This document shows, piece by piece, positions 18,476 through 36,861 of a stretch of DNA of 64,000 nt. Made by a program: the position numbers and the translations under genes. Source of the DNA: an uncultured Elusimicrobia bacterium (lineage in GTDB: Bacteria > Elusimicrobiota > Elusimicrobia > 2-01-FULL-59-12); NCBI GenBank assembly GCA_963702895.1, contig OY969767.1:2432001-2496000 (forward strand), read 5' to 3'. Below the pieces are notes generated by a model, which was not told the origin of the DNA, made no database searches, and saw only the letters and a program-made list of their open reading frames with translations. Positions within the stretch are counted from its first letter, which is position 1; each line of letters starts with the position of its first letter.

Positions 18476-18602
18476 CGTCACCCCGGCGGATTGTTAGCCG
18501 GCCCTCCAGACGCCCGGCGGGCCGTCCGCCCTGCCGTGTGGCGGACGGAGTCTATCATCGACGAAAAAGACATGATGGATCCCGGCTTTCGCCGGGATGA
18601 CG
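18476..18602. repeat. CGTC-type palindromic element (intergenic) carrying a nested 47-bp double-hairpin insert at 18502-18548
   Basis: cgtcaccccggc...gccgggatgacg ends; arms align with the copies at 24161 and 33407. Confidence 0.85.
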
Positions 18603-22028: not shown

Positions 22029-22946
22029 ATGTGGTTTACGCTGGCTGTCATTTTCGTTGTCATCATGATGGCGCTCGGATACAAGACTTGGTTTTCTCCA
22101 CGAGAACAACTCTTTCACACGGATGTTTTCATTCGCAGCCTCGCCAAATACTTCGCCATCGGGCTTTCGGTGGCTCTCTTGGCGACCTTCATCACAGATT
22201 CTGTTGTGATCGTCCCAGCCGGCAATCGAGGGGTGGTCTTTGACCGATTTAAAGGGGTGCGGCCCGTTTCGCTCAATGAAGGCCTCAATATGATCCTGCC
22301 TATTGTTCAAGATGCGACGCTTTTTGAGGTGCGTGTCCAAAAGGTGGAGTTTGACGCAACAGCCGCCTCCAAAGACCTCCAAAGCGTGCGCACCAAAATC
22401 GCGCTCAACTTCCACCCGATCCCGGAGCAGGTCCCGGAAATCTATCGTGCCTACGGGCTTGGCTACACAGAAAAGATTGTGCATCCCGCTGTTCAGGAAG
22501 CCGTGAAATCCGTCACCGCCCGCTACACCGCCGAGGAACTGATCACGCGGCGCGAAGAGGTCAAGGGCCATATTCACGACCAGCTGGTCAGGCATGTGGG
22601 GGCGGCGAACTTAAAACTCGTGGAAACCTACATTACGGATTTTGAATTCTCATCGGAATTCGCGCACGCGATTGAGGCCAAGCAAGTGGCCGAGCAGCAG
22701 GCCTTCAAGGCCAGGCGCGACTTAGACAGAATTAAGATTGAGGCGGAGCAGCGTATCGCCCAAGCACGCGCTGAGGCGGAGGGTCTCAAGATGCAACGGG
22801 AAGCGATCACCCCGCAGCTGATTGAACTTCGGAAAATCGACGCCCAGAAACTCGCCATTGAGAAGTGGGATGGCCGCATGCCCCAAGTCATCATGGGACA
22901 GGGTTCTACCCCCTTCATCGACGTTAATCGTTTTATCCAAAAATAG
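22029..22946 (+). CDS. SPFH/prohibitin family membrane protein
   Basis: AASKDLQ, YTAEELITRR, AIEAKQVAEQ, IEKWDG. Confidence 0.93.
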   Translation: MWFTLAVIFVVIMMALGYKTWFSPREQLFHTDVFIRSLAKYFAIGLSVALLATFITDSVVIVPAGNRGVVFDRFKGVRPVSLNEGLNMILPIVQDATLFEVRVQKVEFDATAASKDLQSVRTKIALNFHPIPEQVPEIYRAYGLGYTEKIVHPAVQEAVKSVTARYTAEELITRREEVKGHIHDQLVRHVGAANLKLVETYITDFEFSSEFAHAIEAKQVAEQQAFKARRDLDRIKIEAEQRIAQARAEAEGLKMQREAITPQLIELRKIDAQKLAIEKWDGRMPQVIMGQGSTPFIDVNRFIQK

Positions 22947-22986
22947 CGAAAACTTCGTTCACGAAACGGCCGTGGAAGGCGCTGAG

Positions 22987-23472
22987 CTCCCGGACCTGGG
23001 CGCCGCACGACCGGCGCTCGCCCGACTATAGTGTGTCGGGTGAACCTAGACGAAGTGCAAAACTCCCGGACTAGGATTCGAGCGCCACACTTCGGGCGCT
23101 CGCCCGACTGTTGTGTGTCGGGTGAACCTAGACGAAGTGCAAAACTCCCGGACTAGGATTCGAGCGCCACACTTCGGGCGCTCGCCCGACTGTTGTGTGT
23201 CGGGTGAACCTAGACGAAGTGCAAAACTCCCGGACTAGGATTCGAGCGCCACACTTCGGGCGCTCGCCCGACTGTTGTGTGTCGGGCGAACCTAGACGAA
23301 GTGCAAAACTCCCGGACTAGGATTCGAGCGCCACACTTCGGGCGCTCGCCCGACTGTTGTGTGTCGGGCGAACCTAGACGAAGTGCAAAACTCCCGGACT
23401 AGGATTCGAGCGCCACACTTCGGGCGCTCGCCCGACTGTTGTGTGTCGGGCGAACCTAGACGAAGTGCAAAA
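22987..23472 (-). repeat. tRNA-linked tandem array: five 82-bp units (23063-23472) plus one degenerate 76-bp unit, each containing the tRNA-Gln T-arm and 3' acceptor strand with a 44-bp T-loop insert
   Basis: ctcccggactaggattcga starts at 23063, 23145, 23227, 23309, 23391 and 23473 (the tRNA itself): period exactly 82. Confidence 0.95.
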
Positions 23473-23543
23473 CTCCCGGACTAGGATTCGAACCTAGACT
23501 AAGGGATTCAGAGTCCCTCGTGCTACCGTTACACAATCCGGGA
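23473..23543 (-). tRNA. tRNA-Gln(CTG), CCA not encoded
   Basis: TCCCGGA acceptor stem, GGTA D-loop, AGGGA-CT-CTG-AA-TCCCT anticodon arm, CTAGG-TTCGAAT-CCTAG T-arm, 71 nt. Confidence 0.96.
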
Positions 23544-23561
23544 GTTTTGCACTCCATATGC

Positions 23562-23589: not shown

Positions 23590-23706
23590 TCCTTCGACTC
23601 CGCACGCCCTGAGCGCAATCGAAGGACTCGTTCCGCTTAGGATGGTTCGGCTCGTATCACTGATGGTGAGCGAGGTCGCCAAACATCTGGCGACCGAGTC
23701 GAACCA
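23590..23706. repeat. Cluster of REP-like palindromes (TTCGA...TCGAA type)
   Basis: tccttcga...tcgaagga (23590-23626) and tggttcggctcg...cgagtcgaacca (23643-23706) with inner hairpin ggtcgccaaacatctggcgacc. Confidence 0.7.
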
Positions 23707-23727
23707 GACCCTCCGAAAGCATGACTC

Positions 23728-24144
23728 TTATGGTTTGATGATTTCCGGTCCTTTGCTCACGCCGGGCGGGATGATTATATCAGGGCCTTTTTTCTCCGTC
23801 GCCTTTTCGGCGGACGCCTCGGACTTGCGGACTTCGTCAGCAAAGTTGAGCTCCAGGTCGGACACCAGGTTGTCGAGCATCTCCTGTTCTTTGACGCTCA
23901 AGTTTCCTTCCGTCTTTTCCTGAAGCATGCGCAAGAACTCAATCGAGATGCGGGCCTGATCGATGTCCTTTTCGATCTTCTGGGTCACCGGATGGGGCAC
24001 TTTCCCCAGCTGCGCCCAGGCGGCAGACCCCAAGGACATCACCAGCGTCAAAAACCGGTAATCGTCCACAACGCTATCAGGCGGACGAGCGCCTGTTGTG
24101 TGGCGCTCGGCTTCTCCTGGCATTTCAATTTTTTCTTCTGACAC
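23728..24144 (-). CDS. DUF1844-like protein
   Basis: F..LVMSLGSAAWAQLGK..HP...DIDQAR..I..L.ML.EKTEGNL..E...L; GTG 24144 preceded by AAGGAGG. Confidence 0.85.
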   Translation of the reverse strand: MSEEKIEMPGEAERHTTGARPPDSVVDDYRFLTLVMSLGSAAWAQLGKVPHPVTQKIEKDIDQARISIEFLRMLQEKTEGNLSVKEQEMLDNLVSDLELNFADEVRKSEASAEKATEKKGPDIIIPPGVSKGPEIIKP

Positions 24145-24160
24145 AACCACCCTCCTTGCC

Positions 24161-24244
24161 GTCACCCCAGCGGATTGTGAGCCGGGGTCCATCGTTATTG
24201 GCGTAGGCATGATGGATCCCCCACTTACAGCCGTGGGGGATGAC
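24161..24244. repeat. CGTC-type palindromic element (intergenic, no nested insert)
   Basis: gtcaccccagc...gccggggtccatc...gatggatccccc...gggggatgac. Confidence 0.85.
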
Positions 24245-24246
24245 AC

Positions 24247-25731
24247 CTAGATTACTTTTGCCTGCAAAAGTTGTTGGGCCTTCTTAATACGCTCGAGCGT
24301 GCGTTTCTTTCCTAAAAATTCCACCATGTGCCAAAGGCTTGGCCCTTCCGTCCGCCCGGACACGCAAACGCGCAAGGGATGAAACACGGCACCGTTCTTG
24401 ACCCCTTTATCTTTGGCCAAGGTCTTGCATAGGTTCTCAATGCCCGGCACGTCAAAGGGCTCAAGCGCCGCCAGGCGCTTGACAAGTTCTTCGATGATCC
24501 CCGCAGCACCCTCGGCGCGAAGCACTTTGCCCACCGCCTCCTCTCGATACTCGTAATCATCCCAGAGAAGAAAATCCGTGAGCTTCGGAACATCCGAGAG
24601 CAGCTTGACTTTTTCGAGCTCGAGGGCGACCGCTGCCTCATAAGTGGACGCAGGCACAGCGGATATGTCTTTGCCCTTGTAGAAGGGTTCCGCCAGGGCA
24701 GCCAGTTCCCGAGCGGACGTTTTGCGGATGTATTCGCCGTTCATCCACAAAAGCTTCGTGGGATCAAAGGTCGCGGCGCTTTTGCCGCAGCGTTCAATCT
24801 GAAATTTTTCCACCATCTCTTGCTGCGTGAACAGCTGCTGGCTGTCTTCGGTCCCCCAGCCAAGAAGAGCGAGATAATTCAGCAGCGCGTTCGGGAGATA
24901 CCCCGCGTCCCGGTACTCCGTGACAGAGGTCGCGCCATGCCGCTTGGAGAGCCGGGCGCCATCGGAACCCAGGATCATCGCCAGATGCGCAAATTGTGGC
25001 ACCTGCCAGCCCAGCGCCTCGTAAACGAGCATCTGCCGCGGCGTGTTGGAGAGGTGGTCATCGCCGCGGATCACATGGCTGATCTTCATGAGATGGTCGT
25101 CCACCACGCAAGCGAAGTTGTAGGTCGGCACCCCCGTCGACTTGAGGACCACGAAATCTTCCATGAGAGCATTCTCAAAAACTTTGACGCCATGGATGAG
25201 ATCCGTAAAGCGCGTCTCGCCCACATGCGGGGTCTTAAAACGGATGGATTTCTTCCGCCCCTGGGCTTCCTTGGCTTTTCGCTCATCAGCGCTCAGGTTG
25301 CGGCACCTGCCGTCATACTTGGGAGGCCTTTTGGCAAGGAGCGCGAGCTCCCGCATTTTCTCCACTTCTTCTGGAGTGCAGTAACAGGGATAGGCAAACC
25401 CCTTCTTCAGCAGCTCGTCGCACGCGGCCCAATAGCCTGCCAGGCGTTGCATCTGATAGTAGGGACCATAGTCGCCCTTCACTCCTCTGCCATCGGCGGT
25501 TGGCCCTTCGTCCCAATCGAGGCCCAGCCACTTCATGGACTCGAGGATCCCGTTGACAGACTCATCTGTGGAGCGCACTTCATCGGTATCTTCAATCCGA
25601 AGAATGAACGTCCCCTGATGGTGACGGGCAAAGAGCCAGTTAAACAGGGCTGTACGCGCCCCGCCGATATGGAGGAAACCCGTGGGCGAAGGCGCAAACC
25701 GGACGCGGATAGACGGTTTATCCATAGACAT
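24247..25731 (-). CDS. gltX: Glutamate--tRNA ligase
   Basis: RFAPSPTG, HIGG, LRIEDTD, HVIRGDDH, RLSKR. Confidence 0.98.
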   Translation of the reverse strand: MSMDKPSIRVRFAPSPTGFLHIGGARTALFNWLFARHHQGTFILRIEDTDEVRSTDESVNGILESMKWLGLDWDEGPTADGRGVKGDYGPYYQMQRLAGYWAACDELLKKGFAYPCYCTPEEVEKMRELALLAKRPPKYDGRCRNLSADERKAKEAQGRKKSIRFKTPHVGETRFTDLIHGVKVFENALMEDFVVLKSTGVPTYNFACVVDDHLMKISHVIRGDDHLSNTPRQMLVYEALGWQVPQFAHLAMILGSDGARLSKRHGATSVTEYRDAGYLPNALLNYLALLGWGTEDSQQLFTQQEMVEKFQIERCGKSAATFDPTKLLWMNGEYIRKTSARELAALAEPFYKGKDISAVPASTYEAAVALELEKVKLLSDVPKLTDFLLWDDYEYREEAVGKVLRAEGAAGIIEELVKRLAALEPFDVPGIENLCKTLAKDKGVKNGAVFHPLRVCVSGRTEGPSLWHMVEFLGKKRTLERIKKAQQLLQAKVI

Positions 25732-25829
25732 AGGCGCTATTTTAACACACCCGCTAACTCGCCGGCGAAAGCGCGTTAGCTTGAACCTCTCTGACGCTTA
25801 ACATACGATATCGCATCCTGAGGAGCATC

Positions 25830-28217
25830 ATGACCATCACACCGCATTTTCGCCACTACCTGAGCCTCTTTTTGATGGCGATGAGCATCATTGTCTGGGA
25901 AATTTTGCTCACGCGCATCTACAGTGTGGTACTGTTCTACCATTTTGCGTTTATGGCTGTTTCGATTGCGATGTTTGGGCTCTCTATGGGCGCCGCTTGC
26001 GTCGCCCTGCAAAAAGTGGATCGTTCTTCAGAGTCTCCCCTGTCCGACCGTATGCTGGCAGCGCTCGGCCTGCTCACAGGGGTTCTCATGGTGCTGGCGA
26101 TCACGTTGCAGTTAAGCTTGCCCATCCCGCCCACACGCAATCCGTGGCAGCTCTTTGGGGTACTTTTCCGAACGTACGTGCTTTCATCGCTTCCGTTTTT
26201 CCCGGCAGGGGCTTTTATATGTCTATTGCTTACGCGCTCCAAGCAAGTGGGACGGCTCTATGCTGTGGATTTGATCGCCGCAGGGCTTGGATGCGCGCTG
26301 ATCCCCGTTCTTCTTTCAGTCTTCGGAGGCCCTGGGGCCACCCTGGTGGCAGCAGCGCTGGCCGGCGGTTCTGCTCTTTGTTTTCTCCCAAGGAAATCAC
26401 GCGCGTCCAGGGTGGCATGGCTTTTGGTCGTAGGGCTCTTGCTGGGGGCCTTGATCAACCGATCAGCCCAAGTCCTGCGCGTGCGTTGGCGGCACAACGG
26501 CCCGGTTCCTATCCCTTTATTTGAAAAATGGAACTCCTTTTCGCGCATTATGATCCAGCCGGGCGGGTCCAGCAATCTGAATTGGGGAGTTGAAGAGACC
26601 TGGAGACGTCAACTGACGCCGGCTCCTCAACTTCAGCTTGAAATTGACTCCGGGGCCGGGACCGCCATCACGCATTTTGACGGGAGACTGGAACCTCTTC
26701 GTTTTTTACAGTACGACATCACGTCGTTTGCTCATTACTTGCGGCCCCAATCCAAAGTGCTCATCATCGGGCCGGGCGGCGGCCGCGATGTGTTGGCGGC
26801 CTTAAGCTTCAAACAGGTCTCCGTGCATGCCGTTGAAGTCAACCCCTCTATTCTATACGCCGTCAATGACGTCTTCGGTGATTTCACGGGCCGCTTGAAC
26901 AAACGCCCCGACGTTCACTTCGTGGTTGATGAAGGCCGGAGCTACTTACATCACGAACAACAACCCTTTGACATCATCCAAGCCTCCCTTGTGGATACGG
27001 TGGCGGCCACGGCCTCTGGCGCCTATTCCTTTGTCGAAAACGGCCTCTACACCGTTGAAGCATGGCGGCTTTTTCTCCATCGGCTCACGCCGCGGGGCCT
27101 TCTGTCCTTTTCACGTTGGTATTTTGGGTCCACGACTTGGCCCGTGGAAGTGTGCCGCACGGTAGCGCTCGCCGCTGAAGCCCTCCGCCAGGAAAGCAAA
27201 AGACCTCAAGACCACATTCTGGTCATCCGCAACAGCAATTTGCGGCCGCCGAAAGAAGGCATCGCGACGGTCCTGGTCTCACGTGAACCCTTTTCATCTT
27301 CGGACTGGGCCAAAGCTTTTGAAACATGCCGGCGGCTCCATTGCGAAATCGCTCTGGCCAAGGGACAAGGGGAACCTCTGCTCGCGTCCATCGTCGGGAC
27401 CACCAACCCGCGCGCGCTGTACGCCGAACTTCCCTTGGACATCTCACCGCCCTCGGACAACAAACCTTATTTCTTTTTCCATGCAAGACTGCGGGATATT
27501 CTTCGGTTTCGTCAGAGCCCGCAATTCGGGGCCTCAGGCTTCAACTTGCCCGCCGTCCGCATTCTGGTCGAGTTAAGTTTGATTACGCTTGCTCTGTCCG
27601 CCCTCATGGTGGTTTGGCCCTACCGCATCCTAAGTCGCAGAACGTCTTGGGCGCCCGTGCCTGCTCGACGGTCTGTTGGGATGCCTTTCTATTTTGGACT
27701 GATCGGTCTTGCTTTTATGTTCCTTGAAATTGGGTGGATGCAGCGCTTCAGCCTTTTCCTTGGTCACCCAACCTATGGGTTCACTGTGATATTGCTGGGA
27801 CTTCTCGTCATGAGCGGTCTCGGGAGTTGGTGGGTCACTTCTACGAAGCTTTTGAGCGACCAATCGCGTCGGTGGATTCCATTGCTCCTCATTCCACTTC
27901 TGCTCATCTCCAATAGGGTGGTCCAGATATTTTTGCCACAGTGGATGGGATCTCCCCTGGAGGTCCGCATTCTAATTACGCTGCTTTCGATCAGTCCTCC
28001 GGCGATCGTGATGGGCATGTTTTTCCCCCTGGCCATGGCGCCTGCTCAGCGCTGGATGGCGGACCGGGTAGGATGGCTATGGGCCATCAACGGCGCCCTG
28101 TCGGTGACAGGCTCCGTGCTCGCGATGGTTTGTTCGTTGGCGTTCGGCATCAGCGGGACTCTAATGCTGGGAACGGGCGCTTATTTCTTGGCTGCGATCC
28201 TGCTTTTACTCCTCTAA
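25830..28217 (+). CDS. Membrane protein fused to a spermidine synthase-like SAM-binding domain
   Basis: TM blocks at both ends; VLIIGPGGGRDV, VEVNP, DEGRSY, DNKPYFF. Confidence 0.8.
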   Translation: MTITPHFRHYLSLFLMAMSIIVWEILLTRIYSVVLFYHFAFMAVSIAMFGLSMGAACVALQKVDRSSESPLSDRMLAALGLLTGVLMVLAITLQLSLPIPPTRNPWQLFGVLFRTYVLSSLPFFPAGAFICLLLTRSKQVGRLYAVDLIAAGLGCALIPVLLSVFGGPGATLVAAALAGGSALCFLPRKSRASRVAWLLVVGLLLGALINRSAQVLRVRWRHNGPVPIPLFEKWNSFSRIMIQPGGSSNLNWGVEETWRRQLTPAPQLQLEIDSGAGTAITHFDGRLEPLRFLQYDITSFAHYLRPQSKVLIIGPGGGRDVLAALSFKQVSVHAVEVNPSILYAVNDVFGDFTGRLNKRPDVHFVVDEGRSYLHHEQQPFDIIQASLVDTVAATASGAYSFVENGLYTVEAWRLFLHRLTPRGLLSFSRWYFGSTTWPVEVCRTVALAAEALRQESKRPQDHILVIRNSNLRPPKEGIATVLVSREPFSSSDWAKAFETCRRLHCEIALAKGQGEPLLASIVGTTNPRALYAELPLDISPPSDNKPYFFFHARLRDILRFRQSPQFGASGFNLPAVRILVELSLITLALSALMVVWPYRILSRRTSWAPVPARRSVGMPFYFGLIGLAFMFLEIGWMQRFSLFLGHPTYGFTVILLGLLVMSGLGSWWVTSTKLLSDQSRRWIPLLLIPLLLISNRVVQIFLPQWMGSPLEVRILITLLSISPPAIVMGMFFPLAMAPAQRWMADRVGWLWAINGALSVTGSVLAMVCSLAFGISGTLMLGTGAYFLAAILLLLL

Positions 28218-30544
28218 GCCAATAATCCCCACGTGTGAAGGAGGTCCCCTTCATGCCGCCACCGGAACCCGATGTCGGTGCGGTAGAACATGTTGGGGAT
28301 GATGATGGTTTTGACGCGGGAGTAGGCCTCGCGGTGGGCTTCTTCCATGGTGGACCCGGAACCGGTGATCACGAGCGCATACCCGTCGCGTCCCGTGATC
28401 TTCCAGTCGCCGTCTTCGAGTTTGACGTCGCCAAGATGGATCCCGTCCATCCCAGGCTTGGTGAATATCACGACCGCGTCCTCGGAAAACTTGCGGAACG
28501 TATCCAAGTCGGCAAAGGGCCAAGGAGGAAGCGCGATGACCACCCCCACCTGAAATCCTTTTTGTGTTTTGAGGTTATAGGGCTTTTTGTTAGCAAGCGC
28601 GTAGAGAAATTCTCCCCACGGGCTCTGGATGCCCTCCATTTGGATGCTGACCGTCGGGTAGCCAAAACGTGGGGTGATCTCCAAGGGGTAGACGTTGCGG
28701 GCCGTGGCGATGCAATTGATATCAAAATAACCCACGTAGCCTGCTTCTTTGAGGCGCGGCACCATTTTCTCGATCGTTTCGCGGTAGAGCCGGCTGGGTC
28801 CCGTCCAAAACATCGAGGTATTTCCACACCACAAAGGCTTTCCATTTCTCCTAACATAGAGCGTGTGATAAGGAACTGTGACACAGTAGACACGCCCTTT
28901 GTAATCAACCACGGTCGTATCTCTGCGGTCAAGCCACGCGTTTGTCTTTTGGATCCTTTCGATCACTTCGTAGCAGGGATGGACCTTTTGAAAGACTCTC
29001 GTTCCGATCTTGCCTCCACGACGTAAGCGCCGTTTGACGATTCCGACACGACCCATCTTGAGAAGCAGTTCTTGGACGTCGTCCGCTAATCGAGGAGAAG
29101 AGGTGTAGTAAATTCGAAAACCGGTGCGCTGTTTATTCCCGTCCCCTAAACACATATGGTCGAAGAGAATCGCTAATTGGCGAGGGGATTGCTCCTTGTA
29201 TTCCGAGGGAATATATTTCGTGAGCGCGTGACCGAAAGGCTTAAGATACGCCCACAAGCGCTTGTCGTAGCATTTCCAGCCTCCTTTCACCTTTCTAAAA
29301 CGGAATGGCAACCTTTCAATCGTCTCTTGAACGGCACGCGCCTTCCGGGCATTCACTTGAGAGATGCCGACCTGATAAGATTTCTCGGAAGTCCAGCCTT
29401 CCGCGAGCCAGAGCCCAAGGAATGCCAGCCAATGGTCCATCGCCATGAGCAAGGGCTGGAACTTGTCCCTGCTTAGGCCATGCCCAGAACGTCCTCTTAA
29501 TGCAGGCAACGAAAACACGGCTTCTTCCTTGCCTTTCCAACAACCCGAGCGCGGCACCACAAATTGGTGGGGAAGATTTTTCGCTTTCACAAAGGTCCAC
29601 TGTTTTTTCTTGCGATATCGCGTGGCTTCCTGGCCGAACATCTGGTGGTCGAGCGTCACAAGCAGATCGGTTGCTCGATTGCGAATACGGACCATTTTCT
29701 TGTGATGATCGAACTGAACAACAGCGGATGGTCTATGATATTCGATCTCATCGGACTCGGGGTTCACACTGGCAAAGCGATCCTCCAGAGAAACATCCCG
29801 AAATCTTTTCCAACCGCCCTGCGTAAGCACTTCCGTCTCCTCGTCATAACAGCCCATCTCTCCTGTAGAGGGGCCGATTTCACCGGCAAAGAGTTTCTTG
29901 TGCTCGAAGTTGATGCAGACGGGCATGATGAACTCTTGTCCATTGAAGAAACCACCGACCGCAACTTCAATACCTGAGACAAACTTTTGGATTTGCAGAC
30001 GGCGCACTTTGGATCCCCAGCCGACTTTGTACCGGTCTAAAATCGCGACGACGTCTTTCCCGTCTTCTTCATGACCCACGAAAGAAAGGACTTTGTCGTT
30101 TTGCGCTTTGCCGGAGGGTTTCACCACGTAGCGGGCAGGATTTTTTATAACAAACTTGGTCGCTTCATCGAAGGAATCGAATTCCCAGGAGTCCGGGATC
30201 GTGAGGCCCACGGCCTTCATCTCCTGAGCTCCGAAGTCGCGGTCAAGCTCCAAGCGATCTGAATAAGAAGATCCTCCGACCACGGGCTTGCCTTCTTTGC
30301 GCAGACGGTCCGCGATCGTCCCGAACGCGGCATCATCGATGATGATGAGGTCCGCCCAGTCTTTATGCGATTCCCATTCGTCCACTTTATCGAGAAATCC
30401 ATCATAGAGCACACGGTCGGCTTTGGACTGCACGAACCATTTGACGTTGTAGCCTTCGAGTTTGAGACGGTAAGCGAGGTCGCCCGCACAGGCCTCAAAG
30501 GAGAGGAAGAGAATATTTTTCGGTTTTCCGTTGCCGTTTGCCAT
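28214..30544 (-). CDS. Divergent phosphoribosylamine--glycine ligase-like (PurD-like) ATP-grasp enzyme interrupted by an intein (432 aa after splicing)
   Basis: YVVKPSG, EHKK...GPSTGEMG, LEITPRFGYP; lacks the canonical PurD GSGGREH N-terminal motif. Confidence 0.8.
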   Translation of the reverse strand: MANGNGKPKNILFLSFEACAGDLAYRLKLEGYNVKWFVQSKADRVLYDGFLDKVDEWESHKDWADLIIIDDAAFGTIADRLRKEGKPVVGGSSYSDRLELDRDFGAQEMKAVGLTIPDSWEFDSFDEATKFVIKNPARYVVKPSGKAQNDKVLSFVGHEEDGKDVVAILDRYKVGWGSKVRRLQIQKFVSGIEVAVGGFFNGQEFIMPVCINFEHKKLFAGEIGPSTGEMGCYDEETEVLTQGGWKRFRDVSLEDRFASVNPESDEIEYHRPSAVVQFDHHKKMVRIRNRATDLLVTLDHQMFGQEATRYRKKKQWTFVKAKNLPHQFVVPRSGCWKGKEEAVFSLPALRGRSGHGLSRDKFQPLLMAMDHWLAFLGLWLAEGWTSEKSYQVGISQVNARKARAVQETIERLPFRFRKVKGGWKCYDKRLWAYLKPFGHALTKYIPSEYKEQSPRQLAILFDHMCLGDGNKQRTGFRIYYTSSPRLADDVQELLLKMGRVGIVKRRLRRGGKIGTRVFQKVHPCYEVIERIQKTNAWLDRRDTTVVDYKGRVYCVTVPYHTLYVRRNGKPLWCGNTSMFWTGPSRLYRETIEKMVPRLKEAGYVGYFDINCIATARNVYPLEITPRFGYPTVSIQMEGIQSPWGEFLYALANKKPYNLKTQKGFQVGVVIALPPWPFADLDTFRKFSEDAVVIFTKPGMDGIHLGDVKLEDGDWKITGRDGYALVITGSGSTMEEAHREAYSRVKTIIIPNMFYRTDIGFRWRHEGDLLHTWGLLA
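28820..29851 (-). mobile_element. Intein with LAGLIDADG homing endonuclease domain, 344 aa (residues 232-575)
   Basis: Block A CYDEETEVLT, block B VTLDH, LAGLIDADG-like FLGLWLAEG and FDHMCLGDG, block F YKGRVYCVTV, C-terminal WCGN followed by Thr. Confidence 0.95.
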
Positions 30545-30781
30545 GTTCCTCTATATGTATGGAATAAAACTTAAGAAATTGCCACTTATTTTTCTGTCCG
30601 GAGTCCTTTTTCATAAGACACTCGAAGCGTGTCTCAAGGAACATGAGGCGCAGCGCGTCTTTCATCGGTGATGCATCGTGATCGATCTGACCGTTTTTTT
30701 AAGAATGATCCGTCGTGCTTGCTCGGCACCCAGACGAGACGTGGACATTATTCTATTCGATAGGATGCTAAAATACTGAAT

Positions 30782-31603
30782 ATGAGACGGCGAGCTTGGC
30801 TTTCCTTGCTTCTTTTGGGGTTCTGTGTGTTCAATTTGGCTCCGGGGTCAGAGGCCCGCGTGAAGATTTCGAAGCTTGCTGAGAAATTGGTTTACGGCGA
30901 CCAGCCCACGAGGCTCGCCGGGATTGAAGAGTTCAACAAGCTGCCCGCGGAAGCCCAGCAAAAACTGGTACCTGATTTTATGGTCGCCATGAGCGATGAA
31001 GATCCAGAGGCCCGCAAAATCGCCTCTCGCATCTTGAAAGCGATGGGTGTCCAAGCGGAAGCCCAGGTCCCAGACGCGAAAAAGGAGATCGCCTCAGAGA
31101 AGTCCAAGACCAAGCCCATCGACAAGTGGGAAGAAGAGAAACGCTTAAAACAGGAGGCGAGTCAGGATAAGTGGGCTGATTTAAGAAGCATGCGCTCGGA
31201 AGAGCAGGGGGGCTACGCCTCCATGAAGCAACAACTCGAAAGCGAAAAGAAGGGCCAGGTGTGGATCGATCCCTCCCAGCTCACCACCGAGGCCTTGGAC
31301 AAGACCTCGCCTCTCGGTTCTGTGACCGAGGCTTTGCGTGACTCGGATCCGTGGGTGAGAGCACAGGCCGCGCGGCGCCTCGGCACGATCCGGCCCGCGC
31401 CCGTGGAAGCCATCCCCGACCTCATCGCGATGCTGGGTGAGAACATCCCGGAGTCGCGCCGCGCGGCGGCCGCTGCGCTCGGTTCCTTTGGGCCCCTGGC
31501 GGAAAAAGCGCTTCCTGCCCTCACAACGGCCCTCTCCGACCCTGACCCCGCCACGCGGCAGATCGCGCAAGAGGCGATTAAGCAGATTCAAATGCACCCG
31601 TGA
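30782..31603 (+). CDS. Exported HEAT-repeat protein
   Basis: Signal peptide; L.D.DPWVRAQAA..LG and ALSDPDPATR repeats. Confidence 0.8.
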   Translation: MRRRAWLSLLLLGFCVFNLAPGSEARVKISKLAEKLVYGDQPTRLAGIEEFNKLPAEAQQKLVPDFMVAMSDEDPEARKIASRILKAMGVQAEAQVPDAKKEIASEKSKTKPIDKWEEEKRLKQEASQDKWADLRSMRSEEQGGYASMKQQLESEKKGQVWIDPSQLTTEALDKTSPLGSVTEALRDSDPWVRAQAARRLGTIRPAPVEAIPDLIAMLGENIPESRRAAAAALGSFGPLAEKALPALTTALSDPDPATRQIAQEAIKQIQMHP

Positions 31604-34600
31604 CCCGAGACGATTTCAACAAACTCCTTCGCGAACAGGTTCTCGTCTTCGACGGGGCTACAGGCACCAACCTTCAGCTCCACAATCCCACCCTGGACGA
31701 CTATGCCGGCATGGAAGGCTGCACCGAAATTCTTCTTGAAACACATCCGGAATGGATCGAGGAGCTTCACGCCTCCTTCTTTAAAGCGGGATGCCAGGTC
31801 GTGGAGACCAATTCTTTTGGGGCGAATCGTATCGTTTTCACCGAATACGGTCTTGAGGACCGGGTTCATGAGTTTAATGTCAAAGCGGCCCAGCTTGCTC
31901 GGAAAGTCGCCCATGCCTTCAGCGCCCAAGACAAACCCCGTTTTGTCGCGGGCTCCATGGGTCCTGGCACGAAGCTTCCTTCTCTTGGACACACCACTTT
32001 CGACACACTGCGCCATAACTACCAGGAACAAGCTGAAGGTCTGATCGACGGGGGCGTGGACATCCTCCTGATCGAAACCTGCCAGGATATCCTACAGGCC
32101 AAAGCCGCCACGGTGGGCGTTCTGGACGCTCTTTCCCGCAAGAAGAAGGACCTCCCGATCATGGTGCAGGTCACCGTGGAGTCCACGGGGACTTTGCTCT
32201 TGGGGACCGAAATGGCGGCGGTCATCTCCGCTTTGGAGCCCTATCCCATCGCTTCCCTCGGCATGAACTGTGCGACGGGCCCCCAGGAGATGTCGGAACA
32301 CGTGCGGATCCTGTCCCAGCAGTGGGCCCGGCCTATTTCTGTTCTTCCCAACGCGGGTTTACCCGAAAACGTGGGCGGACGAGCAGTCTATCGGCTCACT
32401 CCTCAGGAGCTGGCCGAGCATCTGAAAGATTTCGTCACCCGGTTCGGGATCAATATCGTAGGCGGCTGCTGTGGGACCACGCCCGCGCATCTGGCTGAAG
32501 TCGTGAAAGTCATGGAGAAGATCAAGCCTGTTCCGAGAAGCCTCTCAAGCACCCCGGCTTGTTCAAGCCTCTACCTTCAAGTGCCCTTCAAGCAGGAGCC
32601 GAGGCCTCTTATCATCGGTGAACGCACGAATGCCAACGGCTCCAAGAAATTTCGTGAGCTGCTCGCCAAGGATGACTTTGATGCGATCGCCGCCATGGGA
32701 AAAGAAGAGGTGAACGAGGGCGCTCACATGATCGACCTCTGCACAGCTTTTGTGGGCCGGGACGAGGTCCGTGACATGAAGGAATGTGTGAGCCGCATGG
32801 CGCTCCAGGTGCGCCTGCCGCTCATGATTGACTCCACCGAGGCCCCCGTGATTGAAGAAGCTCTTAAACGTGCGGGCGGACGCTGTGTCATCAATTCCAT
32901 CAACCTGGAAGATGGCGAAGAAAGAATGAAGGCGGTCTGCCCTCTGGCCAAGACTTATGGCGCAGCCCTGGTGGCGCTCACAATCGACGAGCAAGGCATG
33001 GCCAAAACCCGGCAAAAGAAGCTCGCCATCGCCAAGCGCATTCACGATCTGGCCATCAAGCGCTTCGGTCTGCGACCGGAAGATTTGCTGTTCGACGCTT
33101 TGACGTTTACGCTCGGTTCGGGTGACGAGGATTTTCGCAAGGCAGGTCTCGAGACCATCGAGGCCATCCGCCTGATCAAAAAGGAGCTCCCCGGAGTCTT
33201 CACCGTACTGGGCGTTTCCAATATCTCGTTTGGTCTGGCACCCCAGATCCGCCAGGTGTTGAACTCGGTGTTTCTCCATTACGCCATTGAAGCCGGTCTC
33301 GACGCTGCCATTGTCCACGCACGCAAGATCCTGCCCCTCTACAAAATCGATGAGAAAGGACGGGAGCTCGCTCGTAAATTGATTTTTGATGATCGCACAC
33401 CCCTCTCGTCATCCCCCGCGGGTGTCAGCGGGGGATCCATCATGATGGACCCCGGGTCTCCAAACAACAGGCGACCCGGCCCGCCGGACGTGTGGAGGGC
33501 CGGCTTACAATCCGCCGGGGTGACGGCTTCTTTTGATCCTCTGACCGCGCTCATGGCGCACTATGCCGAAACCTCAGAGATCTCTGCGAAAGCGAATAAG
33601 GAAGAACCCAAGACCATCGAAGAGCATCTCAAGGTCCGTATCATCGACGGGAATAAACAGGGCCTGGAGGGACTGCTCGATGAGGCGATGAAGAAGTGGG
33701 GTCCGCTCGAGATCATCAACACCATACTGCTTGACGGGATGCGGGTGGTGGGCGATTTGTTTGGTTCGGGCCAGATGCAGCTCCCCTTCGTTCTTCAGTC
33801 CGCGGAAACCATGAAAGTGGCGGTGCGTCATCTGGAGCCCTTCATGCCTAAGGCGGACGCTGGTGTTCATAAAGGGAAGCTCGTCCTTGCGACCGTCAAA
33901 GGGGACGTTCACGACATCGGGAAGAACCTCGTCGATATCATCCTCACGAACAACGGCTACAAGGTTTTCAATTTGGGCATCAAGATGTCGATCGATGAGA
34001 TCCTCAAGGCTGCCGCGGAAAAGAAGGCCGATGCGATCGGGATGTCAGGCTTGCTCGTCAAATCGACGGCGGTCATGAAGGAAAACTTAGAGGAGATGAA
34101 TAAACGAGGCGTGCAAACGCCGGTCCTTTTGGGTGGGGCGGCTCTCACGCGCCGATTTGTGGAAGAAGATCTCCGGCAGCTCTACAAGGGCTATGTCTAT
34201 TATGGGGTGGACGCTTTTGCGGGGCTTCGCATCATGGACGAGCTGACCAACCCTTCCAGAGAAAAGAAGTTGACCCTCTATGAGACGCGTGGCGGTTCGG
34301 GCCAAACCTTGAAAGCGGGAGACTTGCCCTCACCCCACCCCTCTCCCGCCTTCGGCGGGAGAGGGCGGTCGCCAGACGCCTGGCGACCGGGTGAGGGCAC
34401 GCTCTATATCCCTCTATCCCCCTCTCCTTCTATTCCTCATCCGCCGTTCTGGGGCAGCCGGGTCGCGCGAGGAATCGCTTTAAAGGATGTCTTCCCCTAT
34501 ATCAACGAAACGGCCCTCCTCAAAGTGCGCTGGGGCTTTTCCAGGGGGCAAACAAGCGCCGAAGATTACGCGCAACTCCTTAAGGAAACCGTTGGGCCGC

Positions 34601-35301
34601 TCTTTCAGAAGTGGAAAAACTACTGCCTTAAGGAGCAGATACTGGTCCCGCAAGTGGTTTACGGTTATTTCCCTTGCCTGTCTGAAGGAGATGATGTGGT
34701 GGTGTATAGGCCGGAAGATTTGAAAAAGGAATGGGTGCGCTTTAAATTCCCGCGACAAAACACGACTCCGATGCGATGTATCAGTGACTTCTTTCTCCAA
34801 AAGCCGTCATCCCGGCATGCTGTAAGCCGGGATCCATCAGACGTGATGGATCCCCCGCTAAAGTCCGCGGGGGATGACAGAAAGAATTTTGACGTATTAG
34901 GTTGCTTTGTCGTGACGGTCGGAACCCAGGCAAGCAACAAAGCGCATGCCCTCTTCAAGGAGAACTCCTACAGCGATTATCTCTACCTGCACGGGCTAAG
35001 CGTGGAAACGGCCGAAGCCTTAGCCGAGCACTGGCACCGCCGCATGCGTGAGGAGCTGAACATCCACCAGGAAGATCACCCGGAGGTGCGTGAATGGTTT
35101 CACCAGAAGTACCATGGCGGTCGCTACTCTTTTGGGTATCCCGCCTGCCCCAACCTGGAAGATCAAGCAAAGCTTTTTGAACTGCTGGATCCCCAACGCA
35201 TTGGCGTAGCGCTCTCCGAAGCGTTTCAGTTAGACCCTGAGCAAAGCACCTCCGCCATCGTCCTGCACCACCCCGAAGCCAAATACTTTAACGTCCAGTA
35301 A
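31600..35301 (+). CDS. metH: Cobalamin-dependent methionine synthase, with three in-frame repeat-derived insertions
   Basis: DGATGT, GMNCATGP, GGCCGTTP, IGERTNANGS, GDVHDIGKN B12 motif, RYSFGYPACP. Confidence 0.98.
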   Translation: MTRDDFNKLLREQVLVFDGATGTNLQLHNPTLDDYAGMEGCTEILLETHPEWIEELHASFFKAGCQVVETNSFGANRIVFTEYGLEDRVHEFNVKAAQLARKVAHAFSAQDKPRFVAGSMGPGTKLPSLGHTTFDTLRHNYQEQAEGLIDGGVDILLIETCQDILQAKAATVGVLDALSRKKKDLPIMVQVTVESTGTLLLGTEMAAVISALEPYPIASLGMNCATGPQEMSEHVRILSQQWARPISVLPNAGLPENVGGRAVYRLTPQELAEHLKDFVTRFGINIVGGCCGTTPAHLAEVVKVMEKIKPVPRSLSSTPACSSLYLQVPFKQEPRPLIIGERTNANGSKKFRELLAKDDFDAIAAMGKEEVNEGAHMIDLCTAFVGRDEVRDMKECVSRMALQVRLPLMIDSTEAPVIEEALKRAGGRCVINSINLEDGEERMKAVCPLAKTYGAALVALTIDEQGMAKTRQKKLAIAKRIHDLAIKRFGLRPEDLLFDALTFTLGSGDEDFRKAGLETIEAIRLIKKELPGVFTVLGVSNISFGLAPQIRQVLNSVFLHYAIEAGLDAAIVHARKILPLYKIDEKGRELARKLIFDDRTPLSSSPAGVSGGSIMMDPGSPNNRRPGPPDVWRAGLQSAGVTASFDPLTALMAHYAETSEISAKANKEEPKTIEEHLKVRIIDGNKQGLEGLLDEAMKKWGPLEIINTILLDGMRVVGDLFGSGQMQLPFVLQSAETMKVAVRHLEPFMPKADAGVHKGKLVLATVKGDVHDIGKNLVDIILTNNGYKVFNLGIKMSIDEILKAAAEKKADAIGMSGLLVKSTAVMKENLEEMNKRGVQTPVLLGGAALTRRFVEEDLRQLYKGYVYYGVDAFAGLRIMDELTNPSREKKLTLYETRGGSGQTLKAGDLPSPHPSPAFGGRGRSPDAWRPGEGTLYIPLSPSPSIPHPPFWGSRVARGIALKDVFPYINETALLKVRWGFSRGQTSAEDYAQLLKETVGPLFQKWKNYCLKEQILVPQVVYGYFPCLSEGDDVVVYRPEDLKKEWVRFKFPRQNTTPMRCISDFFLQKPSSRHAVSRDPSDVMDPPLKSAGDDRKNFDVLGCFVVTVGTQASNKAHALFKENSYSDYLYLHGLSVETAEALAEHWHRRMREELNIHQEDHPEVREWFHQKYHGGRYSFGYPACPNLEDQAKLFELLDPQRIGVALSEAFQLDPEQSTSAIVLHHPEAKYFNVQ
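33407..33525. repeat. CGTC-type palindromic element in frame in metH, with nested 48-bp double-hairpin insert (33456-33503)
   Basis: cgtcatcccccgc...gccggggtgacg; closely matches the reverse complement of 24161-24244 apart from the insert and a shorter central loop. Confidence 0.9.
34326..34398. repeat. CCCTCACCC-type palindromic element in frame in metH
   Basis: gccctcaccc...ccctctcccgccttcggcgggagaggg...gggtgagggc; encodes PSPHPSPAFGGRGRSPDAWRPGEG. Confidence 0.88.
34806..34878. repeat. CGTC-type palindromic element in frame in metH
   Basis: gtcatcccggc...gccgggatccatca gacg tgatggatccccc...gggggatgac; encodes SSRHAVSRDPSDVMDPPLKSAGDD. Confidence 0.9.
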
Positions 35302-35304
35302 CGT

Positions 35305-35337
35305 CGTCATCCCGGCTTACGTCCTGCCGGGGTGACG
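35305..35337. repeat. Single CGTC-type hairpin between convergent genes (may also act as terminator)
   Basis: cgtcatcccggc ttacgtcct gccggggtgacg. Confidence 0.75.
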
Positions 35338-35346
35338 TTAAAAAAT

Positions 35347-36861
35347 CTATTTCTGGGTGGAGGCCCTGAGGAACTGGAGTCGAGCGGCCGCCGGGAGTTT
35401 GGACGCAGGGATCGCCCGCAGCGACCATTCTTTCCAGCCTCCCTGTAAGCGGCCAAAGGCGGGCTGTGACTGATATTTCGTAGGGATGAGTGCTTTGAGG
35501 GGTGCGTCCTTTTCTCGAAAATCGATGCGCGTATAGACGTCGATGCCTTTGCGCTCAAGATCCACCCGGCCAAAACCGCTGGCCCGGACGCTCGACATGA
35601 CCAGAAGCCCCTCTTGCGCCGTGACGATGCCGTTTTTCGCCTGCCAACGGACGCTGAGCTTGCTAAAAGGGATACCCGTCGACGAGTCGAGATATTTTTT
35701 CTTCAAGTAGGGCATCGATTTGGCTTTGGCCAGTCGTTTAAGGGAACTCGCCGGGAACTCGTAGCGCCCTTCTTGAAGTTCCAGAGAACCCCGCCCTTCG
35801 ATCGTGCTCGAGGTGCGACTGGAGAAGACCATTCCGAAGTCTTGGGTGATGCCGGTGAGCTTCCCGGACAATGAGAGATTTTCCCCCGTCACCAGAAGCA
35901 ACGCTTCGACCGGCACGGCGCTCACAGCGCCCTCCAAACGCAGTCGCGGCCCCGCGGTCTCAGGCGTGAGAGTCCCCTTGAGCTCACTCTGTCCTCCAGA
36001 GATTTGGGCCGAATGCTCAAAGGCCATCCCAGATCCACTCTCTTTGATGGACAACTGCCATAGGTCCAAGCTCAGCGCTGTGTCGAGGGATGGACTGATC
36101 GGGAGCCGCGCCAGAAATTGAAGGACAGTGCTCGCCCGGCTCAGGCGCCACGTCGAGGCCTGAGATTTGAGCTCAAAGCCTTGAGGGGTCCTCGTGAGGC
36201 GTGCGGTGAGCGCGTGGGCCTGGTCGGCCACCTCGAGGTCTCCCGTCCACTGGGGATTTGCGAAAAACTGTCCATTGGCGGCAAACGCAAGGCTCACCCC
36301 CGAAAGAGGCCCCGTGAAGGCGCCACGAACTTCCAGCGTCTCAGGTCTTGGGTTCCAGCTCCCTTCGACAAGGGACAGAACAAGCTCCTGTGGCGCACTC
36401 GCGTAGGAGTCCACCCAGTGGATCTCCCCTTGCTTCCAATTCACGCGCCGGAGGGTTGACATCTTAGCGCCAGGAAGGCTTGCATCACGCGGCCACCAGT
36501 CGCGGTCGTCCCATTGGCCATTGGGCTTTCGATTGATGACCGCGGACCATCCTTTGATCTCAGCCTCTTCCGGCAAGATTTTTAAGCGAAGGAGGCCTGA
36601 GAAGCTCAAGGGCGCGGAAAGGGTCTCGATTTGGAGAAAAGGCTCCTTTTGGTCGTTCAGGACGGCGATCTGTCCGAGACGAAGGGTTGGCGGCCAGTAT
36701 CCGAAGGAGCATTGACCGATCACGACGGGCCGATGGAGGAGGGTGGCGAGGACTTCTTCTATTTTGGCCCGCTGCTGTTCCGGGCGAATCAGGAGTGGAA
36801 GGGTCGCGACCGCCGCCACCAGGACAACGATCAAGAGAACAAAAAACGCTAATCGTTTCAC
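35347..36861 (-). CDS. AsmA-like protein
   Basis: N-terminal TM anchor, beta-rich body, AsmA-like C-terminus (PFSKL...NGIV...G.GRVDL). Confidence 0.65.
   Translation of the reverse strand: MKRLAFFVLLIVVLVAAVATLPLLIRPEQQRAKIEEVLATLLHRPVVIGQCSFGYWPPTLRLGQIAVLNDQKEPFLQIETLSAPLSFSGLLRLKILPEEAEIKGWSAVINRKPNGQWDDRDWWPRDASLPGAKMSTLRRVNWKQGEIHWVDSYASAPQELVLSLVEGSWNPRPETLEVRGAFTGPLSGVSLAFAANGQFFANPQWTGDLEVADQAHALTARLTRTPQGFELKSQASTWRLSRASTVLQFLARLPISPSLDTALSLDLWQLSIKESGSGMAFEHSAQISGGQSELKGTLTPETAGPRLRLEGAVSAVPVEALLLVTGENLSLSGKLTGITQDFGMVFSSRTSSTIEGRGSLELQEGRYEFPASSLKRLAKAKSMPYLKKKYLDSSTGIPFSKLSVRWQAKNGIVTAQEGLLVMSSVRASGFGRVDLERKGIDVYTRIDFREKDAPLKALIPTKYQSQPAFGRLQGGWKEWSLRAIPASKLPAAARLQFLRASTQK

Follow-up and report, generated by a model that had tools for sequence, protein, structure and literature searches.

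Loop-constrained hairpin doublets in an Elusimicrobia genome and their possible relation to tRNA-nested mini GIY-YIG genes

How does a bacterial chromosome acquire inserts of fewer than fifty nucleotides that consist of two hairpins? The question is raised by three loci in a stretch of 64,000 nucleotides (nt), called the window here, which covers positions 2432001–2496000 of the single 2.72-Mb contig (57% G+C) of an uncultured Elusimicrobia bacterium labelled G000. Each locus contains a pair of adjacent GC-rich hairpins, the doublet, in which a short sequence X is followed by a hairpin, the reverse complement of X, a second hairpin and X again. The initial annotation of the window described this order, and the sequence reads exactly so at all three loci. 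Genome-wide analysis established that the hairpins are inserted, lineage-specific and loop-constrained, that their pairs have a strict order, and that they occur mainly in split tRNA fragments and alongside tRNA-nested mini GIY-YIG genes. We give an even chance to the reading that the doublets are copies of lineage-specific GC-rich hairpin modules, which would be the cis elements of tRNA-nesting, single-domain GIY-YIG cassettes. Judged from the sequences, the tiny nuclease genes probably recognise or spread these modules.

The initial annotation had predicted that the loop motif would be enriched in inverted repeats relative to controls, and this was borne out genome-wide. A search for perfect hairpins with the 8-nt loop ANACNNCN and stems of 6 bp or more gave 163 (strand-counted), versus 5–23 for six permuted loop patterns. 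When the loop was not presupposed, the motif was present in 126 of the 408 CGCC-N8-GGCG sites, where about 3 were expected, and the loop A-N-A-C-N-N-C-N closed by CGCC/GGCG occurred at about 40 times its chance frequency in the genome. Among 489 CGMC-N8-GKCG sites, 157 fit all four fixed loop positions and 51 fit three of the four, compared with 0.8% and 9% for random loops. These three sets of counts rule out a chance origin of the hairpins.

Loop positions 2, 5, 6 and 8 vary freely, except that C is almost never found at position 5. What is conserved can be written as CG(C/A)C + A(C/G)ACNNCN + G(G/T)CG. For the outer two stem pairs a small repertoire is used (TCCGCC, GTCGCC, CCCGCC, AGCGCC, CCCGAC, GGCGCC and a few others). 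In a position table of 126 distinct hairpins, conservation was confined to the loop and the four inner stem pairs, and neither a GTAG nor a CGTC tag was present. Because four loop bases are fixed, one-off variants are few and the N positions are free, the constraint acts on specific bases and does not reflect recent common descent alone. Selection maintains the inner stem and the fixed bases of the loop, which suggests that a protein reads them.

The pairs follow one grammar. Relaxed criteria gave 442 hairpins in 357 clusters, and among the 69 clusters of two hairpins, 68 have the loop forward in hairpin 1 and reversed in hairpin 2, as the initial annotation had described, and 1 has the opposite order. 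Clusters larger than two hairpins are always nested (+--, ++--, ++-), and doublets are also found nested at the centre of another doublet. A pattern that required only two 4-bp mini-stems returned 47 forward-reverse pairs, no reverse-forward pair and no pair of the same sense. By loop-to-loop spacing, the doublets form subfamilies of 14 nt (25 copies, in T-loops), 15 nt (18), 10 nt (16), 16 nt (5) and 12 nt (4). The earlier proposal of a hairpin family that is inserted, sequence-specific and built to a single grammar is upheld.

In 45 of 49 doublets the linker is complementary to both outer flanks, with a stem overlap of 0–5 nt, most often 2 nt. It is usually N'N'-CG-NN, and if the shared bases form no palindrome (TC/GA, CC/GG, CA/TG, CTC/GAG), the copy in the middle is reverse-complemented. 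Because the two stems share their foot, that is the central 1–5 bases and usually CG, the order X / reverse X / X is the same fact. The inverted target triplication proposed earlier is right in that three copies of X are present, but X consists of the bases common to two overlapping stems. A target-site duplication of fixed length, as for a miniature inverted-repeat transposable element with terminal inverted repeats, was not found, the shared or duplicated bases ranging from 0 to 5 nt. A genome-wide process that makes CG-flanked palindromes was considered separately. Among 2851 hairpins the outermost stem dinucleotide was CG in 11.2% versus 12.1% inside stems, and since CG is no commoner at the outermost position than within stems, no such genome-wide process is indicated.

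Two of the window loci lie in the same kind of host repeat. At locus 1, the doublet (18502–18548, 15-nt-spacing subfamily) reads CCCTCC-agacgccc-GGCGGG, CCG, TCCGCC-ctgccgtgt-GGCGGA, CGG, a net insert of 47 nt. Direct reading places the first CGG at 18499–18501, hairpin 1 at 18502–18521, CCG at 18522–18524, hairpin 2 at 18525–18545 and the last CGG at 18546–18548. The doublet splits the 3' stem of a CGTC-tagged host hairpin repeat on the forward strand (18479–18565; CGTCACCCCGGC-ggattgtta-GCCGG|..). It is one of 18 copies in the genome (genome coordinate 2450508), every one of them at the same host position. At locus 2, a 48-nt doublet of the 16-nt-spacing subfamily (33456–33503; CCGG GTCTCC-aaacaaca-GGCGAC CCGG CCCGCC-ggacgtgt-GGAGGG CCGG) lies in metH and is translated in frame within the 1233-codon metH frame (31600–35301). 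It is part of a composite host repeat on the forward strand that contains two CGTC-tagged hairpins and forms an in-frame insertion (33398–33527).

Loci 1 and 2 and the 10-nt-spacing subfamily share one site, GATGGAYC|C, in the 3' stem of the CGTC-tagged hairpin repeat. The three loci had been called unrelated; since the first two occupy the same position of the same host repeat family, this description does not hold for them. The genome contains about 374 CGTCAYCCC tags, and the repeat matches the descriptions of the Ssn-related motif and of CGTC-tagged repetitive extragenic palindromes (REPs) given in the cited parts of two published accounts (PMC11893778; PMC3733652). It also flanks two Ssn-like GIY-YIG genes (genome 543327 and 554270), and its family is separate from the loop-motif modules. 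The two hairpins of each doublet exist as a layout of the sequence as described, but hairpin 1 of loci 1 and 2 has a T.C mismatch, and the single-strand DNA fold with the lowest energy is in both cases a single long imperfect hairpin, not two hairpins (z-scores -1.2 and -1.5). The T-loop doublet and the single hairpins fold as drawn (z-scores -2.5 and -3.15).

Related genomes contain the empty form of these sites. In metH of G001, G003, G004, G008 and G010 the whole 33398–33527 insert is absent, and G002 keeps a short remnant. In the orthologue alignment, metH of G005, G006 and G007 has the host repeat without the doublet (..GGACC/CCGG/CTTAC..), versus CCGG-H1-CCGG-H2-CCGG in G000. The two empty sites already recognised in the window are also genuine, and both are paralogous: the intact T-loop of tRNA-Gln and a CGTC-tagged host repeat without doublet on the forward strand (24161–24195; GCCGG|GGTCCATC). 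Compared with the empty site, the net gain is both hairpins and one extra X, which amounts to 44 nt in T-loops, 38 nt at GGATCC|C and 47–48 nt at CCGG. Public sequencing runs had a best share of sampled words of 0.18; the contigs of four runs over 24000–35500 were fragments only, and no filled or empty joint was among them. In the contigs of one public run (X1, 2 contigs, depth 5.4), window position 33466, a free loop position of hairpin 1 in metH, is G and not A, for which a paralogous copy is an equally possible source.

When the doublet was removed from 56 distinct sites, the pentamer GG(A/T)(C/T)C abutted the reconstructed insertion point at 37 of them, versus 4.25% of random positions. 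T-loops have the target GGTTC|R, the host repeat has GGAYC|C and a third repeat has GGACC|T. In sequence, this GGWYC rule resembles the T-arm core GGTTCRANTCC of the phage T4 nuclease SegB, as given in the cited part of PMC2330249.

The third window locus leads to tRNA genes. It is a tandem array of about six 82-nt units derived from tRNA-Gln, located 3' of this gene on the reverse strand (22918–23491). Each unit consists of the 5' half of the tRNA-Gln T-stem, TTCG, a 44-nt doublet, AATCC..acceptor 3' strand and a 12-nt spacer. The doublets of the array lie at 23079–23122, 23161–23204, 23243–23289, 23325–23371 and 23407–23453 on the reverse strand, with a decayed copy near 23000–23040. The intact tRNA-Gln(CTG) on the same strand (23472–23544) has the T-loop TTCGAAT, the empty form of the target.

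Similar arrangements are common in G000. A match to the C-loop-G motif, with no stem required, was found within 420 nt downstream of 27 of the 48 tRNA genes. By manual reading, at least 16 tRNA genes have behind them a second, partial copy of their 3' portion (T-arm and acceptor strand) with a doublet between T-loop positions 57 and 58, and X follows the T-loop, being CG in TTCGA and CA/TG in TTCAA. In several copies of the Thr, Pro and Ala fragments, a single GTCGCC-loop-GGCGAC hairpin replaces the anticodon arm. The 5' side of the split T-stem often mismatches the resident tRNA, and the 3' side matches it. The fragment next to tRNA-Gly(TCC) bears the tail of tRNA-Gly(CCC), which indicates that units move between tRNA loci.

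Several further features were seen at tRNA genes. The 5' leader and 3' trailer of tRNA-Gln (window 23545–23560 and 23460–23472) are complementary for about 8 nt past the acceptor stem (gtgcaaaa / ttttgcac), and the trailer half is repeated in every unit of the array. Leader and trailer are also complementary at the tRNA-Asn loci of G005, G007 and G009. In G000, tRNA-Tyr (genome 2268700–2269026) is followed by a copy from the anticodon stem to the 3' end in which the T-loop is replaced by a 26-nt palindrome (CGTGAGCTCG..CGAGCTCACG); as this is another palindrome, T-loop splitting is not confined to the ACAC-loop family. A tandem of three or more units of about 122 nt follows tRNA-Val(GAC) (genome 1171300–1171696); every unit ends in the last ~17 nt of the tRNA and is built of runs of the word 'ctcagag', with no family hairpins. 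A long (ATCT)n microsatellite lies directly 3' of tRNA-Ala(GGC) (genome 1700780–1700840).

The distribution of the family was compared in 41 related, non-independent genomes: G000, ten others of the same family and 30 from other families of the class. A 16-nt core pattern had 135 sites in G000, 2–89 in the ten relatives and 0–6 in the other 30, while a control pattern had 0–5 per genome and reached 5 in the sole outside genome with 6 core sites. The doublet pattern was also searched in one genome per species for 185,579 species. It returned 37 stretches, of which 34 were in metagenome-assembled genomes labelled Elusimicrobia; the other three were plain long palindromes and were rejected. The doublet family is thus limited almost only to one Elusimicrobiota family.

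Which protein could read the modules? The initial annotation found no enzyme candidate in the window, and this is correct. A tblastn search of the window for a nuclease remnant found none; the matches at ~23.2–23.5 kb are translated hairpins, and a weak match at 23630–23707 (E 0.16) was not counted. Elsewhere in G000 there are nine small frames with PF01541 as their sole domain, two of them Ssn-like and seven of another kind, called tRNA-linked here, which share the motif YxYILRC..LYxG..RRLxEH..YLKxGxGR. PF01541 was the only Pfam family in all seven proteins tested (75–102 residues), and the tRNA-linked frames, such as the one at genome 1813386–1813693, contain the 70–86-residue domain alone, with no separate DNA-binding domain of the SegB type. 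NCBIfam gave only sub-threshold matches to group I intron endonucleases for the GIY-YIG proteins. In the PDB, the Ssn-like type had a weak UPF0213 match, and nothing matched the tRNA-linked type.

The seven tRNA-linked frames are distributed as follows. Behind tRNA-Asn are two genes in tandem, and each of them continues into GGTTGCAGGTTCG[doublet]AGTCCTGCC; one gene is flanked by a pseudo-tRNA-Ala that bears a hairpin and by tRNA-Ala(GGC); a copy interrupted by a stop is between tRNA-Ile and tRNA-Ala of the rRNA operon; a fragment is between tRNA-Arg and tRNA-Lys; one gene precedes tRNA-Gln(TTG); and one is distant from tRNA genes. Family hairpins were found within ~300 nt of five of the seven, and within 150 nt of four of seven nuclease loci in the relatives. 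The tRNA-Asn locus is empty in G004, G006 and G009 and filled in G000 and G007, where the order is tRNA, gene, GGTTGCAGGTTCG[doublet]AGTCCTGCC, original tail and trailer, and downstream gene. In G009 and G005 the same downstream gene directly follows the tRNA. This is the layout of a cassette that would have entered at the T-loop and brought a replacement tRNA end.

The initial annotation had also suggested looking for an enzyme whose presence tracks the motif across genomes. For the GIY-YIG genes this was found in part: tRNA-linked homologues with at least 51% identity occur only in G000, G001, G005 and G007, which are the four hairpin-richest of the 41 genomes, and weaker homologues occur in genomes with few or no hairpins. 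The presence of Y1 genes is unlinked to hairpin counts.

A profile of four close GIY-YIG proteins retrieved 427 relatives in metagenome contigs, and the best 80 of the 427 were kept for neighbourhood counts. A tRNA gene was found within 300 nt of 55 of the 80, on the same strand in 54 cases. On the same strand and within 150 nt, the tRNA was upstream only at 14 loci, downstream only at 31 and on both sides at 6. A second copy of the tRNA tail was present at 20 loci, in the order tRNA, gene, tail at 11, and in these copies the T-loop is split, or the anticodon arm replaced, by GC hairpins whose stems are often GTCGCC, TCCGCC or CCCGCC but whose loops are short. Where the open reading frame precedes the tRNA, a copy of the 5' head was found upstream of the gene for 23 of 37 downstream tRNAs (one of the 23 is an intact second tRNA), in most cases with a hairpin in the D-loop. 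At about 15 loci (manual count), with differing tRNA identities, the D-loop of the 5'-head copy contains a perfect palindrome of the CCTGCCTGCC/GGCAGGCAGG type. This layout, with the gene immediately before the intact tRNA, was seen among loci L088–L167, for example L094, L102, L113, L145 and L153.

Doublets with the ACAC loop were found only in the two closest relatives, L088 and L089 (52–56% identity), and in L099. At L089 the order is tRNA-Gln, gene, TCTAGGTTCG[doublet]AATCCTAG, the gene-bearing form of the tandem gene-less unit of the window. Since 55 of the 80 relatives neighbour a tRNA gene and hairpin-split tRNA fragments are frequent there, the design appears widespread. In the literature searched, no published account of tRNA-nested mini GIY-YIG genes with hairpin-split tRNA pieces turned up.

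From these arrangements a mechanism can be proposed. The module is a unit of about 20 nt with the stem NNCG(C/A)C, the 8-nt loop A-(C/G)-A-C-N-N-C-N and a matching 3' stem, occurring singly or as an ordered inverted pair. Pairs are found beside T-loop-like pentamers GG(A/T)(C/T)C, mostly at T-loop positions 57/58 of duplicated tRNA 3' fragments, and those at the one site of the CGTC-tagged (Ssn-type) repeat would then travel with that repeat, including into metH. The cassette may enter at the T-loop or D-loop, supply a replacement tRNA end and leave the displaced tRNA piece with hairpins in its loop, and the window array may be a gene-less, tandemly amplified derivative of such a nuclease cassette. 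The nuclease might read the T-arm-like site, the hairpin (in the way that Ssn enzymes read their own) or both. It would make a short staggered cut that leaves X on both 3' ends; each end would then gain one hairpin, templated by a copy elsewhere, before the two rejoin through X.

Such staggering and hairpin copying would produce a forward hairpin first on each strand, free mixing of hairpin types, a reverse-complement middle and nesting at pair centres. The forward-then-reverse order would also mean that any cut upstream of a hairpin falls outside the pair on both strands, as at transposon ends. A more specific form of this reading takes the pair as the gene-less homing unit of a widespread mini GIY-YIG class, in which a nuclease of ~70 residues would read the single-stranded ACAC loop and/or GGWYC and X / hairpin / reverse X / hairpin / X would arise in one event. 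This form is possible, and we put it forward tentatively.

Several observations weigh against the cassette reading. The G000 genes at 205881 and 1803812 have no family hairpin in the 260 nt on each side, and three of seven nuclease loci in the relatives have none within 1.5 kb. Most gene-less units have no remnant of a nuclease gene, and 77 of the 80 metagenomic relatives do not have this loop motif and carry other hairpins instead. G006 contains 37 motif sites but only homologues at 41–45% identity, and the co-occurrence as a whole is drawn from genomes that are related to each other. Hairpins cluster at tRNA genes with or without a nuclease gene; since hairpins, tRNA fragments and nuclease genes all cluster there, the three-way link is inseparable. 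The GGWYC rule was seen after the fact, and its sites form only about three independent classes. X is 1–5 nt long, unlike the product of one fixed stagger. Finally, an identical doublet is present in the same host repeat at genome 2692013, so the metH copy could stem from gene conversion between repeat copies and not from a fresh insertion.

The variable length of X would suit microhomology joins, which leads to another explanation. The hairpins could be scars or protective edits: after a cut by the tRNA-nested nuclease in D- or T-loop DNA, repair by end joining or template switching would leave palindromic fillers, which would be retained because they destroy the target in the spare tRNA copy. 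Consistently, it is always the broken tRNA copy that has hairpins in its loop, never the functional one, and other lineages have quite different hairpins at the same places. However, 157 copies in which the inner stem and four bases of the loop stay fixed amid variable neighbours are not what scars would leave, nor would scars reach non-tRNA sites or nest inside one another. We regard this explanation as unlikely.

It is equally unlikely, in our view, that no dedicated enzyme is involved and that the hairpins are RNA or DNA structural elements, selected by the host for termination, processing or stability of tRNA operons and spread by gene conversion and slippage. The frequent position of the motif downstream of tRNA genes (27 of 48), the strong loop constraint and the tandem amplification would all fit such a role, and the identical doublet in a paralogous host repeat makes conversion plausible. 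In contrast, the copies occur in both orientations and within coding frames, they are not kept at orthologous sites, and there are no U-tracts behind the hairpins. An Rfam scan of the window matched no known RNA family apart from the tRNA itself, with the RtT model RF00391 also unmatched. An RNA role also has no need of a strict forward-then-reverse order.

Could the modules instead belong to the resident Ssn-type system, read or moved by the Ssn-like proteins encoded at genome 543327 and 554270? Half of the forward-reverse doublets (34 of 68) sit at one position in CGTC-tagged repeats (11 of the 16 with 10-nt spacing, by manual count, all 18 with 15-nt and all 5 with 16-nt spacing), this repeat flanks both Ssn-like genes, and its tag is abundant in the genome (~374 copies). 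But the modules themselves have no CGTC tag, they do not flank either of the two genes, and outside the host repeat their home is the tRNA T-loop. Moreover, Ssn is described in the cited part of PMC11893778 as cutting upstream of the tag, whereas the doublets sit in the 3' stem. This assignment is improbable.

Movement as REP/REPIN-type elements by a RAYT (HUH Y1) transposase, possibly now lost, which the initial annotation had named among its examples, would suit inverted doublets of short palindromes and the intact Y1 genes in nine of ten family relatives, but it is very improbable and is ruled out as the present driver, because the hairpin-richest genome G000 has only a truncated Y1 fragment of 84 residues (PF01797), none of six Y1 loci in the relatives has an adjoining family hairpin (the nearest is ~1.4 kb off), Y1 presence is not in step with hairpin counts, no GTAG or CGTC tag is present and single hairpins have no replichore bias. 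The 84-codon remnant, of the IS200/RAYT type, lies in an AT-rich stretch (genome 390674–390928; locus L001, 1456–1710) and is the only Y1 trace in G000.

By analogy, the cassette reading would make the system work most like Ssn with its hairpin motifs, REP/BIME elements and free-standing GIY-YIG homing genes, and its form is like that of mitochondrial double hairpins. It fails the defining feature of each of them, having no tag, no Y1 enzyme, no extra DNA-binding domain and no organelle. SegB of phage T4 is a larger, multi-domain phage enzyme. It is not known to have hairpin repeats. The Elusimicrobiota proteins, in contrast, consist of nothing but a domain of 70–100 residues, are encoded on the chromosome, and are accompanied by hairpin modules and a duplicated piece of tRNA. 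The sequence GGTTCRANTCC is recognised by SegB, whose cuts have 3' overhangs of 2 nt; the cited part of its description agrees with the present case in a GIY-YIG gene among tRNA genes, a T-arm motif core and presence or absence between related genomes (PMC2330249).

Proteins of the Ssn clade (cd10448) have about 90–100 residues. Ssn enzymes are single-domain GIY-YIG nucleases that bind hairpin repeats flanking their own genes and cut nearby single-stranded DNA (Chenal et al. 2025, PMC11893778). As far as the cited part goes, Ssn with the NTS/dRS3 repeats of Neisseria shares with the present system a small single-domain GIY-YIG protein, an oriented hairpin repeat that occurs genome-wide, and constraint on both sequence and structure. 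The repeat flanks the gene in the Ssn case, and here in part of the cases (five of seven tRNA-linked genes of G000, four of seven loci in the relatives). In the Elusimicrobiota modules the loop and inner stem are conserved, whereas Ssn motifs have a 5' CGTC tag and stem. Also unlike Ssn, the Elusimicrobiota genes nest in tRNA genes and the repeats form overlapping inverted pairs. The genuine Ssn-type pair of G000 is a separate family and merely host to some doublets.

REP, BIME and REPIN elements with RAYT, and CGTC- and GTAG-tagged REPs, are likewise described, in the part consulted, as short GC-rich palindromes, mostly in inverted pairs, intergenic or intragenic and forming mosaics (Di Nocera et al. 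2013, PMC3733652). Unlike these, the Elusimicrobiota modules have no tag or associated Y1, combine variable stems with a fixed loop, have overlapping stems and prefer tRNA T-loops. Double-hairpin elements and GC clusters of fungal mitochondria are also two adjacent GC-rich hairpins in the form of tiny gene-less insertions (Paquin et al. 2000, cited in PMC10085805; PMC4478555). They occur between genes and inside rRNA and protein genes, with short target bases repeated at their ends (PMC10085805; PMC4478555). The cited parts of these papers describe organelle elements and give no known enzyme, loop motif or tRNA T-loop target. The RtT repeats behind tyrT of E. coli (RF00391) are, like the window array, arranged in tandem after a tRNA gene, whose 3' end recurs in the units. 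Unlike RtT, the window units are 82 nt long, are built around a T-loop hairpin pair and do not match RF00391.

The cassette reading would supply an enzyme candidate, concrete and open to testing, for tiny hairpin insertions that seem otherwise to have none, and would account for such inserts being translated inside essential genes such as metH. It would bring together three subjects that are usually studied separately: REP-like repeats, remnants of tRNA genes located behind tRNA genes, and very small GIY-YIG proteins that annotation calls hypothetical. If the nuclease reads a loop-defined DNA hairpin, this would be a second recognition mode among the recently discovered nucleases of single-stranded DNA, a group of interest as tools. 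If the pair is a homing unit, DNA would move without a transposase or long homology, and the hairpin-split tRNA remnants seen across many phyla would be accounted for.

The window also contains three single hairpins of the family. One lies upstream of tRNA-Gln on the forward strand (23674–23695; GGTCGCC-aaacatct-GGCGACC). The second is on the reverse strand (24086–24109; CGAGCGCC-acacaaca-GGCGCTCG) and has a DNA fold z-score of -3.15. The third, on the forward strand (34366–34389; CGGTCGCC-agacgcct-GGCGACCG), stands at the CG centre of a GGGAGAGGG..GGTGAGGG repeat. These repeats (window 34358–34392 and genome-wide) gave 74 pattern matches, some of them overlapping, of which 34 have a centre of 3–5 nt, often CGGG. 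In the remaining matches the centre holds inserts from at least four different hairpin families, all with CG at the start and the end.

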